A stretch of DNA of 59,955 nt from a virus (Duplodnaviria > Heunggongvirae > Uroviricota > Caudoviricetes): the IMG/VR virus record IMGVR_UViG_3300008255_000107; one strand, given 5' to 3'. Positions 1-19,177 of the stretch are shown one piece after another. The position numbers and the translations under genes are program-made. Position 1 is the first letter of the stretch. Every line of letters starts with the position of its first letter. Under the pieces are notes generated by a model. That model did no database searches and was not told where the DNA came from. It saw only the letters and a program-made list of their open reading frames with translations.

Positions 1-182
1 AGGCTTCGCCCAAAGCCACTCCGACTGGCAGTAAAACTGCCAGTATGTCGTTCGAAGCTCATTGCACGACCTTCCATTTCACAGTAAAGCAAACTATCTT
101 CTCATAGTGAAATGAAACGTCGTATCGCCTGGGCTTTCTCCTTGTGGCCCAAGTGCGCCGCGGCTAAACTGCAACGTTAGGC
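1..182 (+). mobile_element. attC-like site 1 (5' arm apparently outside the window)
   Basis: Ends GCGGCTAAACTGCAAC-GTTAGGC (R' 176-182), same layout as the other three sites; preceded by nested hairpins (ctggcagt/actgccag, catttcac/gtgaaatg). Confidence 0.65.
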
Positions 183-198
183 GAACAAAAGGAATATT

Positions 199-456
199 AT
201 GACACAGAAAGTTGGAAAATATGATGCTGAATTCAGAAAAGCAAAGCCTGAAACGATAGGTGAAAGCAATCATACTTTTGACCTGTCAAACTATGTGGAT
301 TTTCTAGAATCAAAAATTCCAGATAAAGAGTGGTTGAGGGTTGCCATTGATTTCATGGAAGAAGATCAAGAAATACATCCACACGATGTTAGAGTAGAAT
401 GCATTGAGCACCTAAAGCGTTGTCGCCTAACAACCGTTGGTGCTGACCAACTTTGA
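199..456 (+). CDS. Hypothetical protein, cassette 1
   Basis: 85 aa ORF with RBS aaggaa; starts 17 nt after R' of attC1 and stops inside attC2. Confidence 0.75.
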   Translation: MTQKVGKYDAEFRKAKPETIGESNHTFDLSNYVDFLESKIPDKEWLRVAIDFMEEDQEIHPHDVRVECIEHLKRCRLTTVGADQL

Positions 457-502
457 GAACTATAAATTGATGCAAAGTTGGCAGCACAACTTGGCGTTAG
501 AC
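425..502 (+). mobile_element. attC site 2
   Basis: GCCTAAC (425-431) ... GTTAGAC (496-502); arms GTTGGTGCTGACCAACTTTG / CAAAGTTGGCAGCACAAC pair with two unpaired bases on the left arm. Confidence 0.85.
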
Positions 503-522
503 ATACAAAAGGAACAAATACA

Positions 523-1329
523 ATGGAAACAAAAATCATATCAGCATTTCCGGGTACAGGCAAATCCTACTACCATAGAAATAACCCTGAAACTACTCTA
601 GATTCGGATAGCTCCTTGTTTAGCTGGGTGACTGTTGATGGTCAGAAGGTACGGAATCCAGAATTCCCCGCAAACTATATCAAGCACATAACTGAGAACA
701 TCGGTAACGCTGAATTCATTTTTGTCTCATCTCATGCCGAGGTGCGTAAGGCACTCCATGATGCAGGGTTGCAATTCTACCTTGTTTACCCACGACTTAT
801 TGATATGGATAAGTATGTACAGCGTTATAAGGATCGTGGAAGTCCTCAAGGTTTCATTGACCTCGTTGTTAAAAATTGGGATATGTGGATCAATGAATGT
901 CGTTCTGAAACCGACTGCATCAAAATCGAAATGTTCAGAGACTCTATCACCGAAGAAATCCCATTTATTAGCAATTACTTTCAATTAAGTGATAACACAT
1001 CAGAGTCAATTGATAACCCTCCACCAGCGAGTAACCCTAAGATGAAACGAATGTTTGGAATGATGCCAAGTAGTGAAGTTGAAATCGAAAAACGATTTCA
1101 TACAGGAAGCAACCTTTATGTGACCGTACAAGCAGGGCCAAACGGTTGGGGTATCCTGCATGCTGACCACTCAGCGGAAGGACAGGATGTAACGGGTACT
1201 ACGGAGGCAAATGTTGAACGAGCAGTTGCTTGCCTGAAAACTCATTTTATGGAACTCACCGAAGTCCCTAAAGATGAATTATGTGATGTTGAAATGGACG
1301 AATGTTGTGGTGAGTGCTGTGACGAATAA
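523..1329 (+). CDS. P-loop NTPase/kinase-like protein with extra C-terminal domain, cassette 2
   Basis: Walker A AFPGTGKS; start at ATG 523 after RBS aaaggaac (the track start at 478 lies inside attC2). Confidence 0.8.
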   Translation: METKIISAFPGTGKSYYHRNNPETTLDSDSSLFSWVTVDGQKVRNPEFPANYIKHITENIGNAEFIFVSSHAEVRKALHDAGLQFYLVYPRLIDMDKYVQRYKDRGSPQGFIDLVVKNWDMWINECRSETDCIKIEMFRDSITEEIPFISNYFQLSDNTSESIDNPPPASNPKMKRMFGMMPSSEVEIEKRFHTGSNLYVTVQAGPNGWGILHADHSAEGQDVTGTTEANVERAVACLKTHFMELTEVPKDELCDVEMDECCGECCDE

Positions 1330-1340
1330 ATAACATTGAT

Positions 1341-1433
1341 GTCTAACAAACGGTTTAGCTGACACCACCTGAATACACGCATCTCATATATGTGGGTTCT
1401 TAGGCGGTGGTGCAGCTAACCTAGACGTTAGAC
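1341..1433 (+). mobile_element. attC site 3
   Basis: GTCTAAC (1341-1347) ... GTTAGAC (1427-1433); arms GGTTTAGCTGACACCACC / GGTGGTGCAGCTAACC with two bulged bases. Confidence 0.88.
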
Positions 1434-1456
1434 GGACAAATATAAAGCGAGGAAGT

Positions 1457-1696
1457 ATGGATCAGGAAGTAAGAGTTATATACCCCAGAGGCGATAAAAC
1501 AAGACTATCCTTTGGTATCATGTTCGATTATGAAGCCAGTGAGTGGTCTATCGCTGGTAGGGAATCATTCCCCTACACAGAGGAAGGTCAGAAGCAAGCA
1601 TTGGAGTATGGTCGAGCATTAGCTTCATCACATAGACTTCCATTGGATTGCAGTAACCTTGACATAGAGTGTGAATCACAGGATTATTTGGATTAA
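1457..1696 (+). CDS. Hypothetical protein, cassette 3
   Basis: 79 aa, RBS gaggaag, fills the space between attC3 and attC4. Confidence 0.75.
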   Translation: MDQEVRVIYPRGDKTRLSFGIMFDYEASEWSIAGRESFPYTEEGQKQALEYGRALASSHRLPLDCSNLDIECESQDYLD

Positions 1697-1705
1697 CAAA
1701 AAGCC

Positions 1706-1760
1706 GTCTAACAAACGGTGTAACTGACACCTAGCGGTGCGGTTAACCTAGACGTTAGGC
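1706..1760 (+). mobile_element. attC site 4 (minimal, 55 nt)
   Basis: GTCTAAC (1706-1712) ... GTTAGGC (1754-1760); arms GGTGTAACTGACACC / GGTGCGGTTAACC, 4-nt loop; shares flanks with attC3. Confidence 0.85.
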
Positions 1761-1771
1761 TAATGCGAGTA

Positions 1772-1843
1772 GTGTCTTTGGTGAAAATGGTAGACACCCC
1801 AGTCCGAGGTGATTGGGTGGCGGTTCGATTCCGCTAAGGGGTG
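1772..1843 (+). pseudogene. Degenerate tRNA-like element (Leu-type D arm)
   Basis: D arm GTG-AAAATGGTAGA-CAC; T arm GGCGG-TTCGATT-CCGCT; 8-nt anticodon loop containing GAG; weak acceptor stem. Confidence 0.5.
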
Positions 1844-1878
1844 GGTCCCCGTGCGGGTCCTCGTGCGGGTCCTCGTGG
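1843..1878 (+). repeat. 12-bp tandem repeat x3
   Basis: gggtccccgtgc gggtcctcgtgc gggtcctcgtgg. Confidence 0.85.
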
Positions 1879-2264
1879 GGTGTGCTGAGGGAACCACCTA
1901 GGTCCAGCAGTGACCCATCCCCTGCGTCCAAATCGGTGTGGTCCAAGGAACAATTAGAAAACTTCTTCAGGCACGAAACCCCTCTGAGTGATGACGCCTG
2001 TAAAAAGTTGGCCTCTCAACTGGCAAAAGATAAACGCATAAACCTGCTTCTGAGCCAGGATCCTGGTGAGTACACCATCCGGCACGAGTGACCCACATGC
2101 CCGTTCTTATAGGTTTACCCGTAGTACCCCCCACCTACATGATGTTATTAAGACCAACCTGCGGGAGAATCTCGACACCTACGGGGCAAGGGTACTTTAA
2201 CGTATATGTTAAAAAATGTGCTGTGGGTTATATGGGAGTAAGATGACCATATTACAAACAAGGA

Positions 2265-2633
2265 GTGTGTATGAGTGATGCTGTTAAGTGCCCTAAGTGC
2301 CAGTTTGTTTACCAAGTGTCCTCCAGGGAGAATTGGGGTGTGTGTACAAATTGTGGGGTGAACAACGATAAGCTAAACCCTGGGCCAGGCGAAGTCCCGG
2401 AGTTGGTGAGTCATGACATGATTCCCCTCCTAAACCGCAAAACAAGATACGGCGAGGTCAAGGATCTCATGGACGCTATTCTGAAGGACTCTCTTCGAAT
2501 CTTGGACCCTAATGTGCGATTTGCGCTACAGAGACGGGCTAGGGCCCTGGAAGGTATACTGAGGGGTAAGGACAAGAACAACATACGCCTGTACAAGGAA
2601 GAAGCCGACTGGTACGCCAGTAGAGTTAATTAA
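2265..2633 (+). CDS. Hypothetical protein with N-terminal Zn ribbon
   Basis: CPKC...CTNC; RBS aaggag. Confidence 0.7.
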   Translation: MCMSDAVKCPKCQFVYQVSSRENWGVCTNCGVNNDKLNPGPGEVPELVSHDMIPLLNRKTRYGEVKDLMDAILKDSLRILDPNVRFALQRRARALEGILRGKDKNNIRLYKEEADWYASRVN

Positions 2634-3034
2634 TGGTAACCGGTATGGTGCGTACAGAGCGGGCTAACTACCCTCAAACGGATAGACGATGGGTACTTCA
2701 CCGGTATGTGGAGAATCACCTATGCTCCTTGAAATTCTCAAGCCGCACGACAATGGCCAACATGGGCCCGGAACTTGTGGAAGGTGTATTCCGACTGGCG
2801 GACAAGTACCGGGTGGTGTCGGGCGGTGCTGAACTATTTGGGGAACTTACGGGTATTGCTTCACTGGTCATTAAGCTGGCCATAAGGGCTCCGTCTTTGG
2901 CAGACGATGAGGAAGTAGGTATGGTGGAAAAAGCAGTATCCAAAATGATAACTGTTAGGAATACCGTGTCCTTTGAGACTATGGATGGGGAACCGTTCGG
3001 GTTCGGGGGTTTGAAAAATGGCACTGAATCCTAA
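2633..3034 (+). CDS. Hypothetical protein
   Basis: 133 aa, start overlaps previous stop. Confidence 0.65.
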   Translation: MVTGMVRTERANYPQTDRRWVLHRYVENHLCSLKFSSRTTMANMGPELVEGVFRLADKYRVVSGGAELFGELTGIASLVIKLAIRAPSLADDEEVGMVEKAVSKMITVRNTVSFETMDGEPFGFGGLKNGTES

Positions 3035-3158
3035 GGGTAAGAAGTATTTGGAGGATAGGCGGGGTAGCCTTTTGCTGTTACCCCTAGCTACGAAACCAAT
3101 CTCAGACGGTATTAAAGCAGACAGAAACATACTAAGGATTTTAAAAAGGATCGGGTGA
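3018..3158 (+). CDS. Small basic hypothetical protein (46 aa, not in track)
   Basis: MALNPKGKKYLEDRRG...; stop overlaps the radical SAM start. Confidence 0.4.
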   Translation: MALNPKGKKYLEDRRGSLLLLPLATKPISDGIKADRNILRILKRIG

Positions 3159-4051
3159 TGGTAGATACAGGGTTTTCTGAAATAACCGAAGAGCGGTTGA
3201 ACTACTCGGGGTCTGACCCCTGGTACTGTGAAATAGCCATCACTGGTAAGTGTAACTTCTCCTGCCGCTATTGTAACAGGTTCCACTCCGATCTGAATGT
3301 GGATCTGCTTGAATCCTTCTTAACCGGTAAAGTTCTAAGGCACATCCAAGTGACGGGGGGAGAGCCTACTCTACACCCAGACTTCAAACGCATCATGGCC
3401 CTGTGTAGAAAACATTGTGTGCGTCTGGGTCTATCCACCAATGGGTCCGATTCTGTGGACACCTACCTGTCGACAGGTACTGATATGTTCTCCATATCCC
3501 TGGACGACTATGACCACGACACGCTGCTGTACAGGGGATACCAAAATCCTGCCCACGTGGAGAGGGTAATCACGGAGCTTGCGTCCCAACGATATGTGAA
3601 CGTGGGGTTGGTAATTGACTCCCTTAACGTGGGCAGAATAGAAAGAATCATCGACCATATCTTATCCCTAGGGGTACAGGACATCAAGCTGTCATCCTCC
3701 ACAAAGGATGAGCTTCTGCCCAAGTTTACAGGGGACTATTCGAAGTACCCCATACTTTCCTACCGCACTGAAAGATTCAACCAGGGCAAACAGATGAGGG
3801 GAGGACCTCCCCCAAAGTGCAGTATCTCCGTTAACGATATAACCATCGTGGGGGACTCACACTACCCGTGCCTAGTCTACTTTCGAGAAAAAGGTAAGGC
3901 TATCGGTAAGCTGTCCGCAGCATCCATGGGTGAAAGGAAACTGTGGAGTGAGAGCCACGACTCCACCACAGACCCCATCTGCAGCAAGTACTGCATGGAT
4001 TTTAAATGTGAGTTCAACAATAGCCTAGCCAATAAACAAAACCCTAGCTAG
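3155..4051 (+). CDS. Radical SAM protein with Cys-rich C-terminus
   Basis: CNFSCRYC (CxxxCxxC), TGGEP, STNG; extra C-terminal cysteines. Confidence 0.9.
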   Translation: MMVDTGFSEITEERLNYSGSDPWYCEIAITGKCNFSCRYCNRFHSDLNVDLLESFLTGKVLRHIQVTGGEPTLHPDFKRIMALCRKHCVRLGLSTNGSDSVDTYLSTGTDMFSISLDDYDHDTLLYRGYQNPAHVERVITELASQRYVNVGLVIDSLNVGRIERIIDHILSLGVQDIKLSSSTKDELLPKFTGDYSKYPILSYRTERFNQGKQMRGGPPPKCSISVNDITIVGDSHYPCLVYFREKGKAIGKLSAASMGERKLWSESHDSTTDPICSKYCMDFKCEFNNSLANKQNPS

Positions 4052-4068
4052 GTATAAGGAGCCCCACC

Positions 4069-4566
4069 GTGCCCATCACCATTATGACCGCCAAGGTTAC
4101 CCAACAGATACCTGTTACTATTCAAACACCCTTTTACTTTAAGCATGTGATCGATGGCGATGGCCCCGAAGACCAGTGCTCCGTGTGCTTAGGTAGGTTC
4201 ACTTCCAACAGTGTCACTACTATCCAAAAAAACACACTAGGTGGATCCGCGGAGTACTGTGTAGAAAACACCCAGGTCGATAACTTTCAGAATTACAAAA
4301 ACTACCTGACCAATCCCAAATTTGCTTCCTCCGAGGAGGAGTTTGGAGCGGCGGTCCAAGAGATGACGGATTTCCTGGCATCCTACACGGGGTACCCCGT
4401 GGCGGTGGGGGATAAGGTGCAGCACAAAAGGTACAGGCGCTGGCAAGGTGAGGTCCTGTCCATCGATACTAACATGCCCCACCCCACTACGTGCAGGGTA
4501 AAATGGGACGAAGGTACGGACGAATCAGATACCCAGTGGACCGATAAGTTGATCAGGGTCAGTTAA
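4069..4566 (+). CDS. Hypothetical protein
   Basis: 165 aa, RBS aaggag. Confidence 0.65.
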   Translation: MPITIMTAKVTQQIPVTIQTPFYFKHVIDGDGPEDQCSVCLGRFTSNSVTTIQKNTLGGSAEYCVENTQVDNFQNYKNYLTNPKFASSEEEFGAAVQEMTDFLASYTGYPVAVGDKVQHKRYRRWQGEVLSIDTNMPHPTTCRVKWDEGTDESDTQWTDKLIRVS

Positions 4567-4617
4567 ATTTTGGACCCTACCTTTGTACAATATGTTTAAC
4601 CCAGATCAAGGTGCCGT

Positions 4618-5328
4618 ATGAATTTGAGTGACGCTATCCGAAAAATCGTGGAAGACAATAGCATTGATGTATGTTTCAATGTATCCAAAATGGGTGGCCA
4701 TCCAGCTATCCTCAGCCATCCTGAACTTATGGATCAGGCCTTTGCTAATCTGTTCCCCCACGTAAAGGGTACCACGGCTAAAGCAGTGTGCTCCACTTTG
4801 GTGGTAGATCCCTACCACCCTTTGATGTTTATGGACGCCACCCATTGGGATTACTGGATCATCTACAGGGATCTAAATGGTGTACTATCAATCGATGTAG
4901 CCAGGGAATGGGACGAGTGCAGGTTCCTGGTAAAGCACAAACACAAACCTAACGCGATTGGCGGATTGGAGACCATTGATATCATCCAGCGCAACAAAAG
5001 TGTGAAGTACAGTATCCAGGGGAGGGATTACCCTTTCCACTTGGTTAGAGAAAGGGATATAACAAGGCTGATGGATGACGGGGACACCATCGAAAACTAC
5101 GACGAGTCTGGGTACATCGTTCGGCAATTTGATACTGTGGTGAAGATAAGTGGGATAGGGAGCCACGATGACTTGTACAGCATCATCAGGAAGGCCCTGG
5201 CAGACCACGGCATCATTGTAAAAGAAAGACTTACCGGGATCATGTCCCACCCCGAAGTTAGATCGTCTCCCGAGGCTCACCCGCCCCTTGTGGTACTCCA
5301 CGTAGATGCGTCCCCCATGCCGGGGTAG
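4618..5328 (+). CDS. Hypothetical protein
   Basis: 236 aa, downstream of a TTAAAT-N17-TACAAT promoter-like motif. Confidence 0.7.
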   Translation: MNLSDAIRKIVEDNSIDVCFNVSKMGGHPAILSHPELMDQAFANLFPHVKGTTAKAVCSTLVVDPYHPLMFMDATHWDYWIIYRDLNGVLSIDVAREWDECRFLVKHKHKPNAIGGLETIDIIQRNKSVKYSIQGRDYPFHLVRERDITRLMDDGDTIENYDESGYIVRQFDTVVKISGIGSHDDLYSIIRKALADHGIIVKERLTGIMSHPEVRSSPEAHPPLVVLHVDASPMPG

Positions 5329-5336
5329 AGGTTAGT

Positions 5337-5585
5337 ATGAAACAGAAAAGACCAGCACCCATAACCAAGGAAGATAGCCAAAGGGCATTTCGTTTAGTGG
5401 GGGAGAGAATACTGTGTGCTAGAGATCCCGAGGGGCTTGGCTCCTACGCCACCCTGGTGGATGTGCTTACTGGGGAGGATGCCCCCTTCGCTGTTATTTT
5501 GGAAAACCCCTGTAACACCAACAGAATAATTTCACGCTGTTCTTGCATCGTGGAAGACACGACCTACACGGAGAATAAATCATGA
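5337..5585 (+). CDS. Hypothetical protein
   Basis: 82 aa in tight operon. Confidence 0.55.
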   Translation: MKQKRPAPITKEDSQRAFRLVGERILCARDPEGLGSYATLVDVLTGEDAPFAVILENPCNTNRIISRCSCIVEDTTYTENKS

Positions 5586-5905
5586 ACATTGTTTTTGCGA
5601 CTTACGTAATAGCCGCCACCATACTCCTAGGAATTTGTGTACTAAGGCACGGTTCCCTCCTGTCATACGCAAGGTCTATGACCACTCCACCCTCTAGAAG
5701 AGTGCGTACCCTTCGAAATATGCTAGTGATGTCGTTAAGCAGCGTCATTCTTAGCGGGCTTACGGTGGCGCTTACCGTTACAGGTGGGTTTCTAACTGAC
5801 AGTATCGCACCTTTCGCTGGGATTACCGCGGGTTCGTCAGTGTTAGCTATTGTTCTGGTTTTTGTGGAGGAAACACGAGAGGTGTACTGCGACGACCTAC
5901 CCTAA
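5582..5905 (+). CDS. Membrane protein (about 3 TM)
   Basis: Three hydrophobic stretches; ATGA overlap with previous gene. Confidence 0.65.
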   Translation: MNIVFATYVIAATILLGICVLRHGSLLSYARSMTTPPSRRVRTLRNMLVMSLSSVILSGLTVALTVTGGFLTDSIAPFAGITAGSSVLAIVLVFVEETREVYCDDLP

Positions 5906-5962
5906 TATTTTTGGTTTAAAAAAAATGGTAACCTCCTGTACTATGGGGTAAAGGAGTGCCCA

Positions 5963-6571
5963 ATGTCCGAACCAATTTTGAAAGCTGATGGATTTGATAA
6001 CTGCGTCGTAGGTGTGGTAAGCGGGTGCGGGAGACAGCCTGTCCTTGCATATGATTCCTCTAAGATCATAGCCCAGCTTATGAAACGAGACGGCATGGAC
6101 AGGGAAGAGGCTCAGGAGTTCTTCGACTTTAACATAGCAGGTGCCTACCTGGGTGAGGGGACACCTGTGTTTTTTGGACAAATACCGACCCAAGGAACAT
6201 GGTTCCCTGGACCAATGGATAGAGGAGCATTACTCATGAGTGCAGACCAAGGTGCAAGTAGCATGTATGCGTCGTCCTCTTACGCGAGTATCACTACTGG
6301 CCCAAGTTCAGAAGTGGTAGTAGAAAAATTCATAAAGTTCAGGGGCAAAGGTTTTATCAGGGCCACATTCGACTTTAGCGCGCTGGAACCTGAAGAACAT
6401 GTCCACGCCCTGAACATCATACTATCATCCACTATAACCGTGGTAGGTCCTTCCTACCCTGAGAAAACCCAAGCAGTAGAACCACTACGTAAGAAAACTT
6501 GGGGTGAAAAATTTTGGAGATCCCTAGGTTTGGTACCTGGGGAAAAAGTCACGGAGGTTTCCCATGGATGA
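5963..6571 (+). CDS. Phage-type hypothetical protein
   Basis: ADGFD..VVG...VLAYD...EEAQEFFDFNIAGAYLGEGTP pattern recalled from phage proteins. Confidence 0.75.
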   Translation: MSEPILKADGFDNCVVGVVSGCGRQPVLAYDSSKIIAQLMKRDGMDREEAQEFFDFNIAGAYLGEGTPVFFGQIPTQGTWFPGPMDRGALLMSADQGASSMYASSSYASITTGPSSEVVVEKFIKFRGKGFIRATFDFSALEPEEHVHALNIILSSTITVVGPSYPEKTQAVEPLRKKTWGEKFWRSLGLVPGEKVTEVSHG

Positions 6572-17624: not shown

Positions 17625-17696
17625 GGCCTTATAGCTCAGTGGTAGAGCAGGGAACCCTAAACTCCTCGCGCCGGGGTTCGACCCCCCGTAAGGCTA
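17625..17696 (+). tRNA. tRNA with CUA anticodon (amber suppressor-like)
   Basis: Acceptor GGCCTTA/TAAGGCT; D and T arms canonical; GGGAA-CCCTAAA-CTCCT. Confidence 0.7.
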
Positions 17697-17719
17697 CTAA
17701 CAACGAAAGGTTTACTCAA

Positions 17720-19177
17720 ATGAATACGGTATCGCCGGAAAAAGAAGTGGAAAGGTTGCTGGGTAAAATCCTAGCAGGCTCAGTTTTCCATGGTAAGGTG
17801 AAAGCCGTGGGTGGGTACGTCCGCGATGAGTACCTAGCGTCCCTCACAAACACACCCCACCACCCCAAGGATTTGGACATCCTGGTCGATGATGGTCCCG
17901 AGGGGTCCAAAAGATTTGCTTCCCATCTCCATAGTCTGTTCAGTAAGGAAACCAGCCTACCCAGACAGATGGGGGCGGGCTACCCTATTTGGCAGCTCAC
18001 TTTCCACAGTAACATCACCCTGATCAGTGGGGGTACTTTTCTCACGGAGGGTGCGGTGATTGAGTTTGCAGACCCTATGAAGGAGACCTACCCTGACCAG
18101 GACTCACGCCAACGCACGGTAATCCCTGCCACCTTGGAGGAGGATATCAAGCGGCGTGACTTCACTGTTAACATGCTTCTAAAGGACCTAACCTCCGGTG
18201 AGGTAGAGGACTTGTGCGAGAGTTCATTGTACGACATTAGACGCGGCATCCTAAGGGGTCACCCCGATGTATACTCCCGCAAGATGTTCTCTGACGACCC
18301 CCTACGTATTATGAGGCTGGTAAGGTTCCATGCCAAGTACGGGTGGGAGATAGCCTACGACCTTTTCCTAGGAGCTAGAAGGACAGCCAACCGACTAAGC
18401 ATCGTATCTATGGAGAGGATCCAAGGCGAACTTCAAAAAATTTTGGAGTATGGGGAGCTTCATAAATCCATAGGGCTAATGAATGACCTAGGGGTTTTGG
18501 ATTATATCCTGCCTGAGGTAAAGAACCTGGAGCATGTCGAGCATGACTCTGAGTACCACAAGGAGGGTGACGTGTACACCCACACTATGATGGTACTGGA
18601 AAATTCGGATAAGACCGTTTGTGGCCAGCTTGCTGCTTTACTGCATGACGTGGGGAAACCTGCCACCCGTGAAATCATAGACGGAAAGGTTAGGTTCATA
18701 GGTCACGAAGAAGTAAGCGCCTATATGGCCAAAGACATTTTGGACCGGTTAAAGTTTCCTTCCCAGGTACGGGATCAGGTCGCCAAGGTTATCGGGTTCC
18801 ACATGAGACCTCTGGCTCTGGTTAATAACCAGTCCCCCTCCAGAACATACAGGAGATTCATGAGGGACGTTGGTCCCTATCTGGATGATGTTCTAAGTTT
18901 AGCGTCTGCTGATTGCAAGGGTAGGCTCCCCTACTCTCCCAATCATGAAAAAGTGATTGCGAAGGTTAGGGAGATACAGGACCACGACGCCAACCTTCCG
19001 CCACCGCCGCCACTTAACGGTCGGGACATAATGGAAGCTCTGGGACTCAAGTCCGGTATTCAGGTAGGGATGGCTGTACGAGTAGTGCAGGACATCCACG
19101 ATGAGTACTTGGAAAAGGGTATCTCCGTTAGTAAGGAGCAGGCCATTTCCGAACTGAGGGAACGATTCAAAGTGTAA
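17720..19177 (+). CDS. cca: CCA-adding tRNA nucleotidyltransferase with HD domain
   Basis: VGGYVRD, DLDI, DIKRRDFTVN, DDPLRIMRLVRF, ERI; HD domain H..GDVYTH...LLHDVGK. Confidence 0.92.
   Translation: MNTVSPEKEVERLLGKILAGSVFHGKVKAVGGYVRDEYLASLTNTPHHPKDLDILVDDGPEGSKRFASHLHSLFSKETSLPRQMGAGYPIWQLTFHSNITLISGGTFLTEGAVIEFADPMKETYPDQDSRQRTVIPATLEEDIKRRDFTVNMLLKDLTSGEVEDLCESSLYDIRRGILRGHPDVYSRKMFSDDPLRIMRLVRFHAKYGWEIAYDLFLGARRTANRLSIVSMERIQGELQKILEYGELHKSIGLMNDLGVLDYILPEVKNLEHVEHDSEYHKEGDVYTHTMMVLENSDKTVCGQLAALLHDVGKPATREIIDGKVRFIGHEEVSAYMAKDILDRLKFPSQVRDQVAKVIGFHMRPLALVNNQSPSRTYRRFMRDVGPYLDDVLSLASADCKGRLPYSPNHEKVIAKVREIQDHDANLPPPPPLNGRDIMEALGLKSGIQVGMAVRVVQDIHDEYLEKGISVSKEQAISELRERFKV

Follow-up and report, generated by a model that had tools for sequence, protein, structure and literature searches.

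How does an array of gene cassettes, of the kind that integron integrases assemble, come to stand in the genome of a large bacteriophage, and what enzyme would have worked on it? The question is raised by the left end of a 59,955-nucleotide stretch of Caudoviricetes DNA (IMG/VR virus record IMGVR_UViG_3300008255_000107), hereafter the window, which belongs to a 208,623-bp contig (ENA assembly ERZ27293386, contig k141_252269) of an uncultivated groundwater phage. An original prediction, made from the letters of the window, placed there three units, each with a single open reading frame (ORF) and bounded by sites with the layout of attC, the recombination site of integron cassettes. It supposed that the phage had either a cassette-shuffling system of its own or a clustered set of attC sites without an integron integrase (CALIN). 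Our reading is that positions 1-1790 of the window, together with ~75 nt upstream, are probably such a CALIN, set in the accessory-gene region of a ~209-kb tRNA-rich phage and built by an integron integrase (IntI) that likely acts in trans.

The original prediction also regarded integrons as undescribed in lytic phages, a view that has been overtaken. Integrase-less cassette arrays in phages were first reported in 2023, when Qi et al. (PMC9892861) described 17 CALINs among 10,705 phage genomes, including those of virulent phages of up to 132 kb. Phage CALINs are thus already known, and the new angle seems to be a pool of cassettes that apparently resides in phages.

The attC sites of the array

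An attC site is defined (PMC5027507) by the end boxes RYYYAAC and GTTRRRY; by extrahelical bases near L'', on the arm with AAC in the top strand; by a T that is conserved on the bottom strand as its last extrahelical base; by a 6-bp stem from the first to the last extrahelical base; and by an unpaired spacer of 5-6 nt, with a loop that varies. On the bottom strand, the first extrahelical base is "usually" G, and no single extrahelical base is required (PMC5027507). Three complete sites of this layout lie in the window, all on the + strand, as are the ORFs: site 2 at 425-502 (78 nt), site 3 at 1341-1433 (93 nt) and site 4 at 1706-1760 (55 nt). Their inverted R'' boxes (GCCTAAC at 425, GTCTAAC at 1341 and again at 1706) and R' boxes (GTTAGAC at 496-502 and 1427-1433, GTTAGGC at 1754-1760) fit RYYYAAC and GTTRRRY exactly, and another R' box, GTTAGGC at 176-182, ends an atypical site 1. 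The 7-nt box is followed in all three complete sites by an unpaired spacer of 4 nt in the left arm and 5 nt in the right, and two extra bases stand in the left arm and none in the right. Folding of the bottom strands as single-stranded DNA (ssDNA) gave z scores of -5.2, -3.7 and -1.3 for sites 2, 3 and 4. A geometry detector written for this attC signature found it nowhere else in the 60-kb window and nowhere in 20 shuffles of it. The units so bounded, 177-496, 497-1427 and 1428-1754, have exactly the coordinates first proposed and contain one ORF each.

A check with a covariance model, as had been suggested, was made with a model of our own, R1, which was built from nine sites of three other contigs (L004, L006 and L018) and from none of the window. 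In the R1 alignment 92% of cells are paired and 13 of 20 pairs carry changes on both sides; none of 500 shuffles was equally good, and slid controls reached 23-37% paired. The 6-bp stem separating the extra bases is modelled in R1 and covaries, and the top-strand A (bottom-strand T) at alignment column 22, the last extrahelical base, is invariant. Run with filters off on the 60-kb window, R1 detected site 2 at 57.4 bits (E 4e-12), site 4 at 57.2 bits (E 5e-12) and site 3 at 50.5 bits (E 2e-10), with the next match at 11.3 bits (E 2.3). Neither a search of Rfam with window positions 1-6000 and L001:8900-9700 (L001 being source-contig DNA that includes the stretch upstream of the window) nor a DNA search of positions 1-1760 against GenBank phages and PLSDB plasmids returned a match.

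The same model connects these sites with genuine integrons. A scan of 185,579 species genomes with a loose attC pattern gave matches in metagenome-assembled genomes (MAGs) of Acidobacteriota, Gemmatimonadota and Thermoanaerobaculia. In the Thermoanaerobaculia MAG G005, a full-length IntI (TIGR02249, 463 bits against a cut-off of 265) adjoins at least 17 co-oriented R1 sites, which are absent on the other side of the gene, and in an Acidobacteriota MAG a second R1 array lies beside a degraded IntI. Because R1 recognises arrays beside IntI, the phage sites belong to the structural class that accompanies this enzyme. Taken on sequence and predicted structure, sites 2-4 are canonical integron attC sites, and their recombination by IntI is predicted. 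As an observation on G005 itself (L043/L051; G005:C10:18000-29501), intI shares a strand with its at least 17 attC sites and lies upstream of them, an arrangement of the "reverse" type and not of the classical divergent orientation.

Four attC sites had been counted originally, and of these sites 2-4 proved complete, with only the right arm of site 1 inside the window. Site 1, whose arms were paired by hand, is an atypical attC of 257 nt on the + strand at L001:9404-9660, with its distal part and right arm at window positions 1-182. Its R'' box, GCATAAC at L001:9404, starts 74 nt before window position 1 and is one position off consensus; R'' and the L'' arm together occupy the stretch from 74 to 44 nt before the window. 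The left arm, GTT[G]TAGCCG[G]C.GCGC, pairs in the canonical register with the GCGCCG-CGGCTA-AAC that precedes GTTAGGC. The two arms are ~200 nt apart, a highly structured insert fills the apical loop (ssDNA fold z -5.85), and both arms match those of an ordinary 54-nt attC in a viral contig (L025:3520-3573). R1 did not detect site 1. We read it as a genuine attC type whose apical loop appears to have been disrupted or expanded, and the site may be inactive. A short 79-nt attC at L001:9404-9482 was considered in its place and dropped, as the L-box pairing is missing.

Cassette movement between phages

When a circular cassette intermediate recombines at G|TT, the footprint left behind is an R'' box that pairs with the start of its own cassette. 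This rule, noticed in the original prediction, holds for all three cassettes of the window, two of which are informative, and for 6 of 6 informative cassettes in four arrays, where R'' pairs with the cassette's own first six bases and not with the adjacent R'. The cassette boundaries can also be located by comparison. In BLASTN alignments, homology of cassette 1 starts at the G of the R' box (window position 176 against L018:4985 and L014:331), and so does that of cassette 2 between L004:835 and L006:246; the breakpoint is thus exactly G|TT in three comparisons, and at the other end homology fades a few nucleotides past R''. The proposal that the cassettes were built by IntI recombination at G/TT is borne out by both lines of evidence.

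Copies of cassette 2 with 83-84% protein identity occur in other arrays (L004/L005 and L006/L007), and copies of cassette 1 with 78-89% protein identity in the phage-like contigs L018 and L014-L017. These relatives, at ~80% DNA identity, stand in contigs with different neighbours and different GC content (35-46%). The presence of the same cassettes in different phage contigs shows that cassettes move between phages. The ratio of nonsynonymous to synonymous change (dN/dS) is 0.04-0.13 overall, ~0.1 for cassette 1 and 0.04-0.05 for cassette 2, with synonymous sites near saturation; purifying selection together with this near-saturation means that the cassette format has persisted through long divergence. 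All three cassette genes belong to phage families, and they are live phage accessory genes under strong purifying selection.

The attC types are shared as well. A first, over-specific attC pattern had no match in IMG/VR, and a two-arm pattern found four IMG/VR viral contigs with 2-4 R1 sites each; the right arm of site 3 found nine JGI metagenome contigs with 3-6 R1 sites each, at 45-62 bits. Near-copies that include the loop exist for site 2 (L025:2217-2294, 68 of 80 aligned columns or 85%), site 3 (L026:5437-5529, 80 of 93 positions) and site 4 (L026:6518-6572, 48 of 56 aligned columns, with compensatory changes), and they follow genes unrelated to the cassettes of the window. We put forward tentatively, as a possibility still short of an even chance, that a pool of integron cassettes resides in phages, in which a few conserved attC types bound many small accessory genes that circulate among unrelated phages devoid of an integrase. 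The phages concerned would range from ~30 kb to >200 kb and from 35 to 50% GC, in groundwater and freshwater, and the cassettes would lie outside the sequenced bacterial integron repertoire. If this is true, integron recombination, by a host IntI during infection or by another enzyme, would be a general route of accessory-gene exchange between phages as well as between bacteria.

Several observations concern the places at which such arrays begin or vary. The same motif, CATAAATRACTAG|TTAGRC, stands before different first cassettes in the unrelated arrays of L018 (4960-4991) and L006 (220-251), with no attC upstream of it in either contig; it may be a shared entry site of attI-like or attG-like kind. 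In L026 (4700-5170), the intergenic region ahead of an IMG/VR array holds three TTATCCGGAT-like repeats, and a divergent gene there, starting MKICGIDPS..., suggests by its sequence a RuvC-type resolvase, not an integrase. In run X1, an aquifer metagenome, the assembly graph branches at the right arm of site 3 (1407-1440). A 1,019-nt X1 contig with an arm of site 3 at both ends was considered as a cassette circle and set aside, since a different JGI contig, of 45.6 kb, has two attC arms ~985 nt apart that it matches; likewise, an X1 joint of 1446 to 1698 belongs to the array of that other contig and is no deletion in this phage. In the comparison aimed at an empty site, the upstream genes of 278 and 360 aa had no IMG/VR relatives, radical-SAM relatives (L008-L012) were not syntenic, and the relatives P0124 and P0125 lay in differently arranged phages.

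The array is contiguous with the phage. The concern that a bacterial integron fragment might have been joined to a phage contig during assembly was raised in the original prediction. The composition of the block, which is indeed more AT-rich than the rest, as was said there (42.5% GC against 49.6%), would agree with a chimera. Three assemblies nevertheless encode the cassette 2 protein: the 208,623-bp ENA contig, a 15.9-kb JGI contig and a Logan contig. Over 6,573 nt the JGI contig agrees with the window without mismatch, and its upstream genes are the same; the ENA locus shows a single mismatch in 11,329 nt. Both agree across the two junctions. A 5.2-kb Logan contig of X1 bridges positions 1411-4100, that is site 3, cassette 3, site 4 and the phage backbone, at a depth of 10.3, equal to the 9.6 of the cassette contig. 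With the cassette genes themselves coming from phage families, the chimera is effectively refuted.

A probable integrase in trans and the competing explanations

In known integrons, the intI gene adjoins the array. No tyrosine recombinase (PF00589) was found among the 77 ORFs that code for 110 aa or more in the window and in the 9.5 kb before it, or in ten ORFs tested first; a further 9.3 kb upstream had none either, the only family there being FtsK/SpoIIIE. A tblastn search for IntI-like sequences in 184 kb of array-bearing loci was negative, with both positive controls firing, and PF00589 was absent from four whole IMG/VR records that carry this attC family, among them one with terminal repeats. 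There is thus no intI next to the array within 18.8 kb upstream, where the original prediction had suggested looking for an IntI-type enzyme, or within 58 kb downstream, and the locus is not a complete integron. Three model-supported sites and one atypical site lie within 1.85 kb, with no integrase for ~19 kb on one side and 58 kb on the other, which makes the array a CALIN by the usual definition of at least two clustered attC sites and no integron integrase nearby (Cury et al. 2016, as given in PMC9892861). Of the two options offered originally the CALIN therefore stands, and a shuffling system of the phage's own finds no tyrosine recombinase in ~79 kb.

In the mechanism that we favour, cassettes would be made and joined by IntI-type recombination, with cleavage at the G|TT of the R' box of a folded bottom strand, and would be drawn from a pool of cassettes and attC types common to unrelated phage contigs. 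An integron integrase, supplied by the host or by a co-resident element, would act in trans on infecting phage DNA and place cassettes either into an attC already present or into a plain G|TT (attG-like) site. Both the acting enzyme and any ongoing shuffling in this phage we infer. A trans-acting integrase is plausible because attC sites from virulent phages are recombined by IntI1 with the same efficiency as attC_aadA7 (PMC9892861), and because IntI inserts cassettes at GWT sites outside integrons, giving rise to small CALINs (bioRxiv 10.1101/2022.09.11.507474). Insertion of the attG type would also fit the arrays of L018, L006, L026 and L014, which open at a bare junction, their first cassette having no attC before it.

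A number of findings weigh against assembly by an IntI acting in trans. The integrase search covers ~79 kb (18.8 kb upstream and 58 kb downstream) of the 208,623 bp, with ~130 kb outside it, and it linked no integrase of any origin to the array. The strict pattern of the attC subfamily occurs in none of 185,579 bacterial and archaeal species genomes (596 Gbp), so that this search points to no integron-bearing donor or host; set against four viral arrays, the zero is suggestive of a viral bias, a contrast that does not amount to a quantitative test of enrichment. Where G is usual as first extrahelical base of the bottom strand, sites 2, 3 and 4 have C, A and C, and the spacer is 4/5 nt in every site of the subfamily, in place of 5-6. 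No structural variants of the phage differing by whole cassettes were found, runs X2-X4 yielding only short pieces of low depth that are uninformative on variants. Finally, the low-GC stretch extends from ~480 nt before the window to a step at ~1790. The 15 nt after the last attC are of the type of TTAGGCTAATGnGAGGA, one of the recurring cassette leaders, which also include TTAGGCGAACAAAAGGA, and positions 1755 to ~1790 are for this reason read as the stub of a fourth cassette. Low-GC block and stub reach beyond the last G|TT, so the array's right edge would not have been made by IntI.

This edge is one argument for another history, in which an array built by IntI elsewhere was captured en bloc, through illegitimate or homologous recombination with the array of a co-infecting phage or with a host integron, and is now static. 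Besides a low-GC island that exceeds the outermost crossover points and a fourth leader left after the last attC, it would account for a site 1 broken by a ~200-nt insert and with R'' off consensus, and for a locus that is identical in three assemblies or samples; off-target or illegitimate recombination is, moreover, the entry route suggested by Qi et al. (PMC9892861). Sites 2-4 are nonetheless intact, with scores equal to the highest of the family, and attC sites kept while the genes diverged to synonymous saturation argue that the sites are maintained by use. We judge capture en bloc to be rather unlikely, and it concerns the history of one genome and is compatible with our reading of what the array is.

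The enzyme itself leaves room for two other proposals. An IntI encoded elsewhere on the 208.6-kb genome, which would make the locus a complete but split integron, could lie in the part beyond the searched stretch, and the lack of bacterial genomes with the subfamily under the strict pattern leaves a place for a phage-borne enzyme. It would, however, depart from the adjacency of intI and array in known integrons, and neither the 18.8 kb upstream and 58 kb downstream nor the four IMG/VR records of the same attC family, including the one with terminal repeats, contain the expected recombinase; we hold it to be improbable. Use of the sites by a phage-specific recombinase other than IntI would agree with the absence of IntI from every array of the subfamily, with the absence of the subfamily from the bacterial genome set under the strict pattern and with a spacer one nucleotide shorter per arm than usual. 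But a model made from such sites also picks out arrays that adjoin genuine IntI genes, IntI substrates share the geometry and the G|TT crossover, and no candidate recombinase of any kind adjoins the arrays examined, which makes this proposal less likely still. An IntI-built CALIN served in trans thus remains the explanation that we prefer.

How the array compares with known systems bears on what it may mean. It resembles the phage CALINs of Qi et al. (PMC9892861) in its co-oriented, attC-bounded cassettes without an integrase and in a canonical site type that IntI1 recombines. It differs in that the phage is ~209 kb and uncultivated, in that the cargo consists of phage-family genes where theirs were methyltransferases, and in that cassettes and attC types recur across phage contigs, a sharing that they did not report and that is seen here at the level of sequence. 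Classical attC sites (attC_aadA7 and the Vibrio cholerae repeats, VCR; PMC5027507) have the same boxes, extra bases in L'' with a 6-bp stem, a bottom-strand T as last base, a variable loop of 4 to ~40 nt, the G|TT crossover and one ORF upstream of attC; they differ in spacer (5-6 against 4/5) and first extra base (G against C/A), and site 1, with its 257 nt, is unlike them. Sedentary chromosomal integrons of soil and groundwater bacteria such as MAG G005 likewise have arrays of short cassettes with attC sites that the same covariance model recognises. Arrays of the G005 type have an adjacent IntI and GC-rich sites of 19-48 bits, of one uniform attC type per array, whereas the phage array has no IntI, and its four types of site differ from one another, are richer in AT and score 50-57 bits. 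Insertion at attG, with the single attC sites lacking integrases (SALINs) and small CALINs that result (Loot et al., bioRxiv 10.1101/2022.09.11.507474), offers a similar route by which cassettes are placed outside integrons at G|WT, but it was shown for bacterial chromosomes and not phage DNA, and the first element of the window is an attC and not a bare junction.

Our literature search found nothing that connects attC arrays with jumbo phages or with contigs from viral metagenomes, and nothing on cassettes and attC types shared among phages. In the usual view, integrons are bacterial devices and phages occasional carriers of their fragments; here the genes carried are of phage type and subject to purifying selection. 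Should this be generally true, site-specific exchange of cassettes would be among the mechanisms that make the accessory regions of phages mosaic, and the small cassette genes without an assigned function would be good candidates for roles in host takeover or counter-defence. The array also provides a concrete set of substrates with which to ask whether host integron integrases act on infecting phage DNA.

Cassette genes, array edges and phage backbone

The cassette genes are co-directional with the flanking phage genes, and each has its own ribosome-binding site within a conserved leader. Cassette 1 (177-496, + strand) consists of the leader TTAGGCGAACAAAAGGAA and an 85-aa ORF at 199-456, with no function assigned; the neighbours of its relatives are a phage primase gene (L018) and genes for ParB, VRR-NUC and a helicase (L014). 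Cassette 3 (1428-1754, + strand) carries a 79-aa ORF at 1457-1696, again with no function assigned, whose protein belongs to a small family of 70-80 aa with 24 relatives. The best of these lies in a tightly packed operon of small phage genes without attC. ESM Atlas searches for cassettes 1 and 3 gave scores below 0.85 and no usable lead.

Cassette 2 (497-1427, + strand) contains a 268-aa ORF at 523-1329 that matches phrog_4182 (PHROG, E 2e-50). The protein has a P-loop N-domain like those of nucleoside monophosphate kinases, a small beta-rich C-domain and a Cys-rich tail, and its predicted fold (predicted local distance difference test, pLDDT, 82) matches AK6/Fap7, guanylate, shikimate and gluconate kinases with template-modelling (TM) scores of 0.5-0.6 depending on the hit; a profile search of the PDB gave no sequence match. 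The N-domain of phrog_4182 is widespread in T5-like phages and in jumbo phages of the AR9/PBS1 type. A second, divergent P-loop gene of phrog_4182 type lies beyond the array of L004, outside any cassette (L004:2370-2824), so that a single contig has the family in a cassette and also as an ordinary phage gene.

On the left, the ~370 nt before site 1 are AT-rich and non-coding and contain the motif GAAATGG repeatedly. A sigma-70 scan around the array and upstream of site 1 gave no promoter above chance, and the region upstream of site 1 has no homology to the entry regions of other arrays. GAAATGG/CCATTTC occurs six times in the 420 nt of L001:9191-9610 (window -287 to 132), where 0.13 would be expected from its density in the window, partly in non-coding sequence that precedes the array and partly within the insert of site 1, with no Rfam match. 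Some copies form a 12-bp inverted repeat, GGAAATGGTCTTG...CAAGACCATTTC, and the motifs could be protein-binding repeats or a structured RNA. Run X1 also holds a 90-nt contig (depth 3) that is 96% identical to window positions 94-171, the end of site 1, and runs on into GACGTTAGACGG where the window has CAACGTTAGGCG; by this divergence, a related attC of the site 1 type precedes a different cassette leader in the same sample.

On the right, the presumed stub of the fourth cassette (1755-1790, + strand) has the leader TTAGGCTAATGCGAG, after which GC content rises to the level of the backbone; leaders of this type also open cassettes at L004:218 and L026:6092. Overlapping it, window positions 1772-1842 would form three successive hairpins like the D, anticodon and T arms of a tRNA (T arm GGCGG-TTCGATT-CCGCT), without an acceptor stem. 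Neither ARAGORN nor Rfam called a tRNA in this stretch, which may represent a tRNA gene that has been broken, or an element resembling a tRNA at the array's edge. At the start of the backbone, positions 1845-1885 contain a short GC-rich tandem repeat, GTGCGGGTCCTC, in two copies with partial copies.

The phage backbone is rich in tRNA genes, of which the window has 28, and among 35 ORFs 34 PHROG families are represented. No virion or structural genes were found in the window; the backbone genes include those for a CCA-adding enzyme, RtcB, RlaP, PhoH, sigma factors and nicotinamide adenine dinucleotide (NAD) salvage. One of the tRNA genes called by ARAGORN, at 17625-17697, has the anticodon CTA and is labelled tRNA-Pyl, which would make it an amber suppressor, and it overlaps the start of the ORF for the CCA-adding enzyme (17639-19177).

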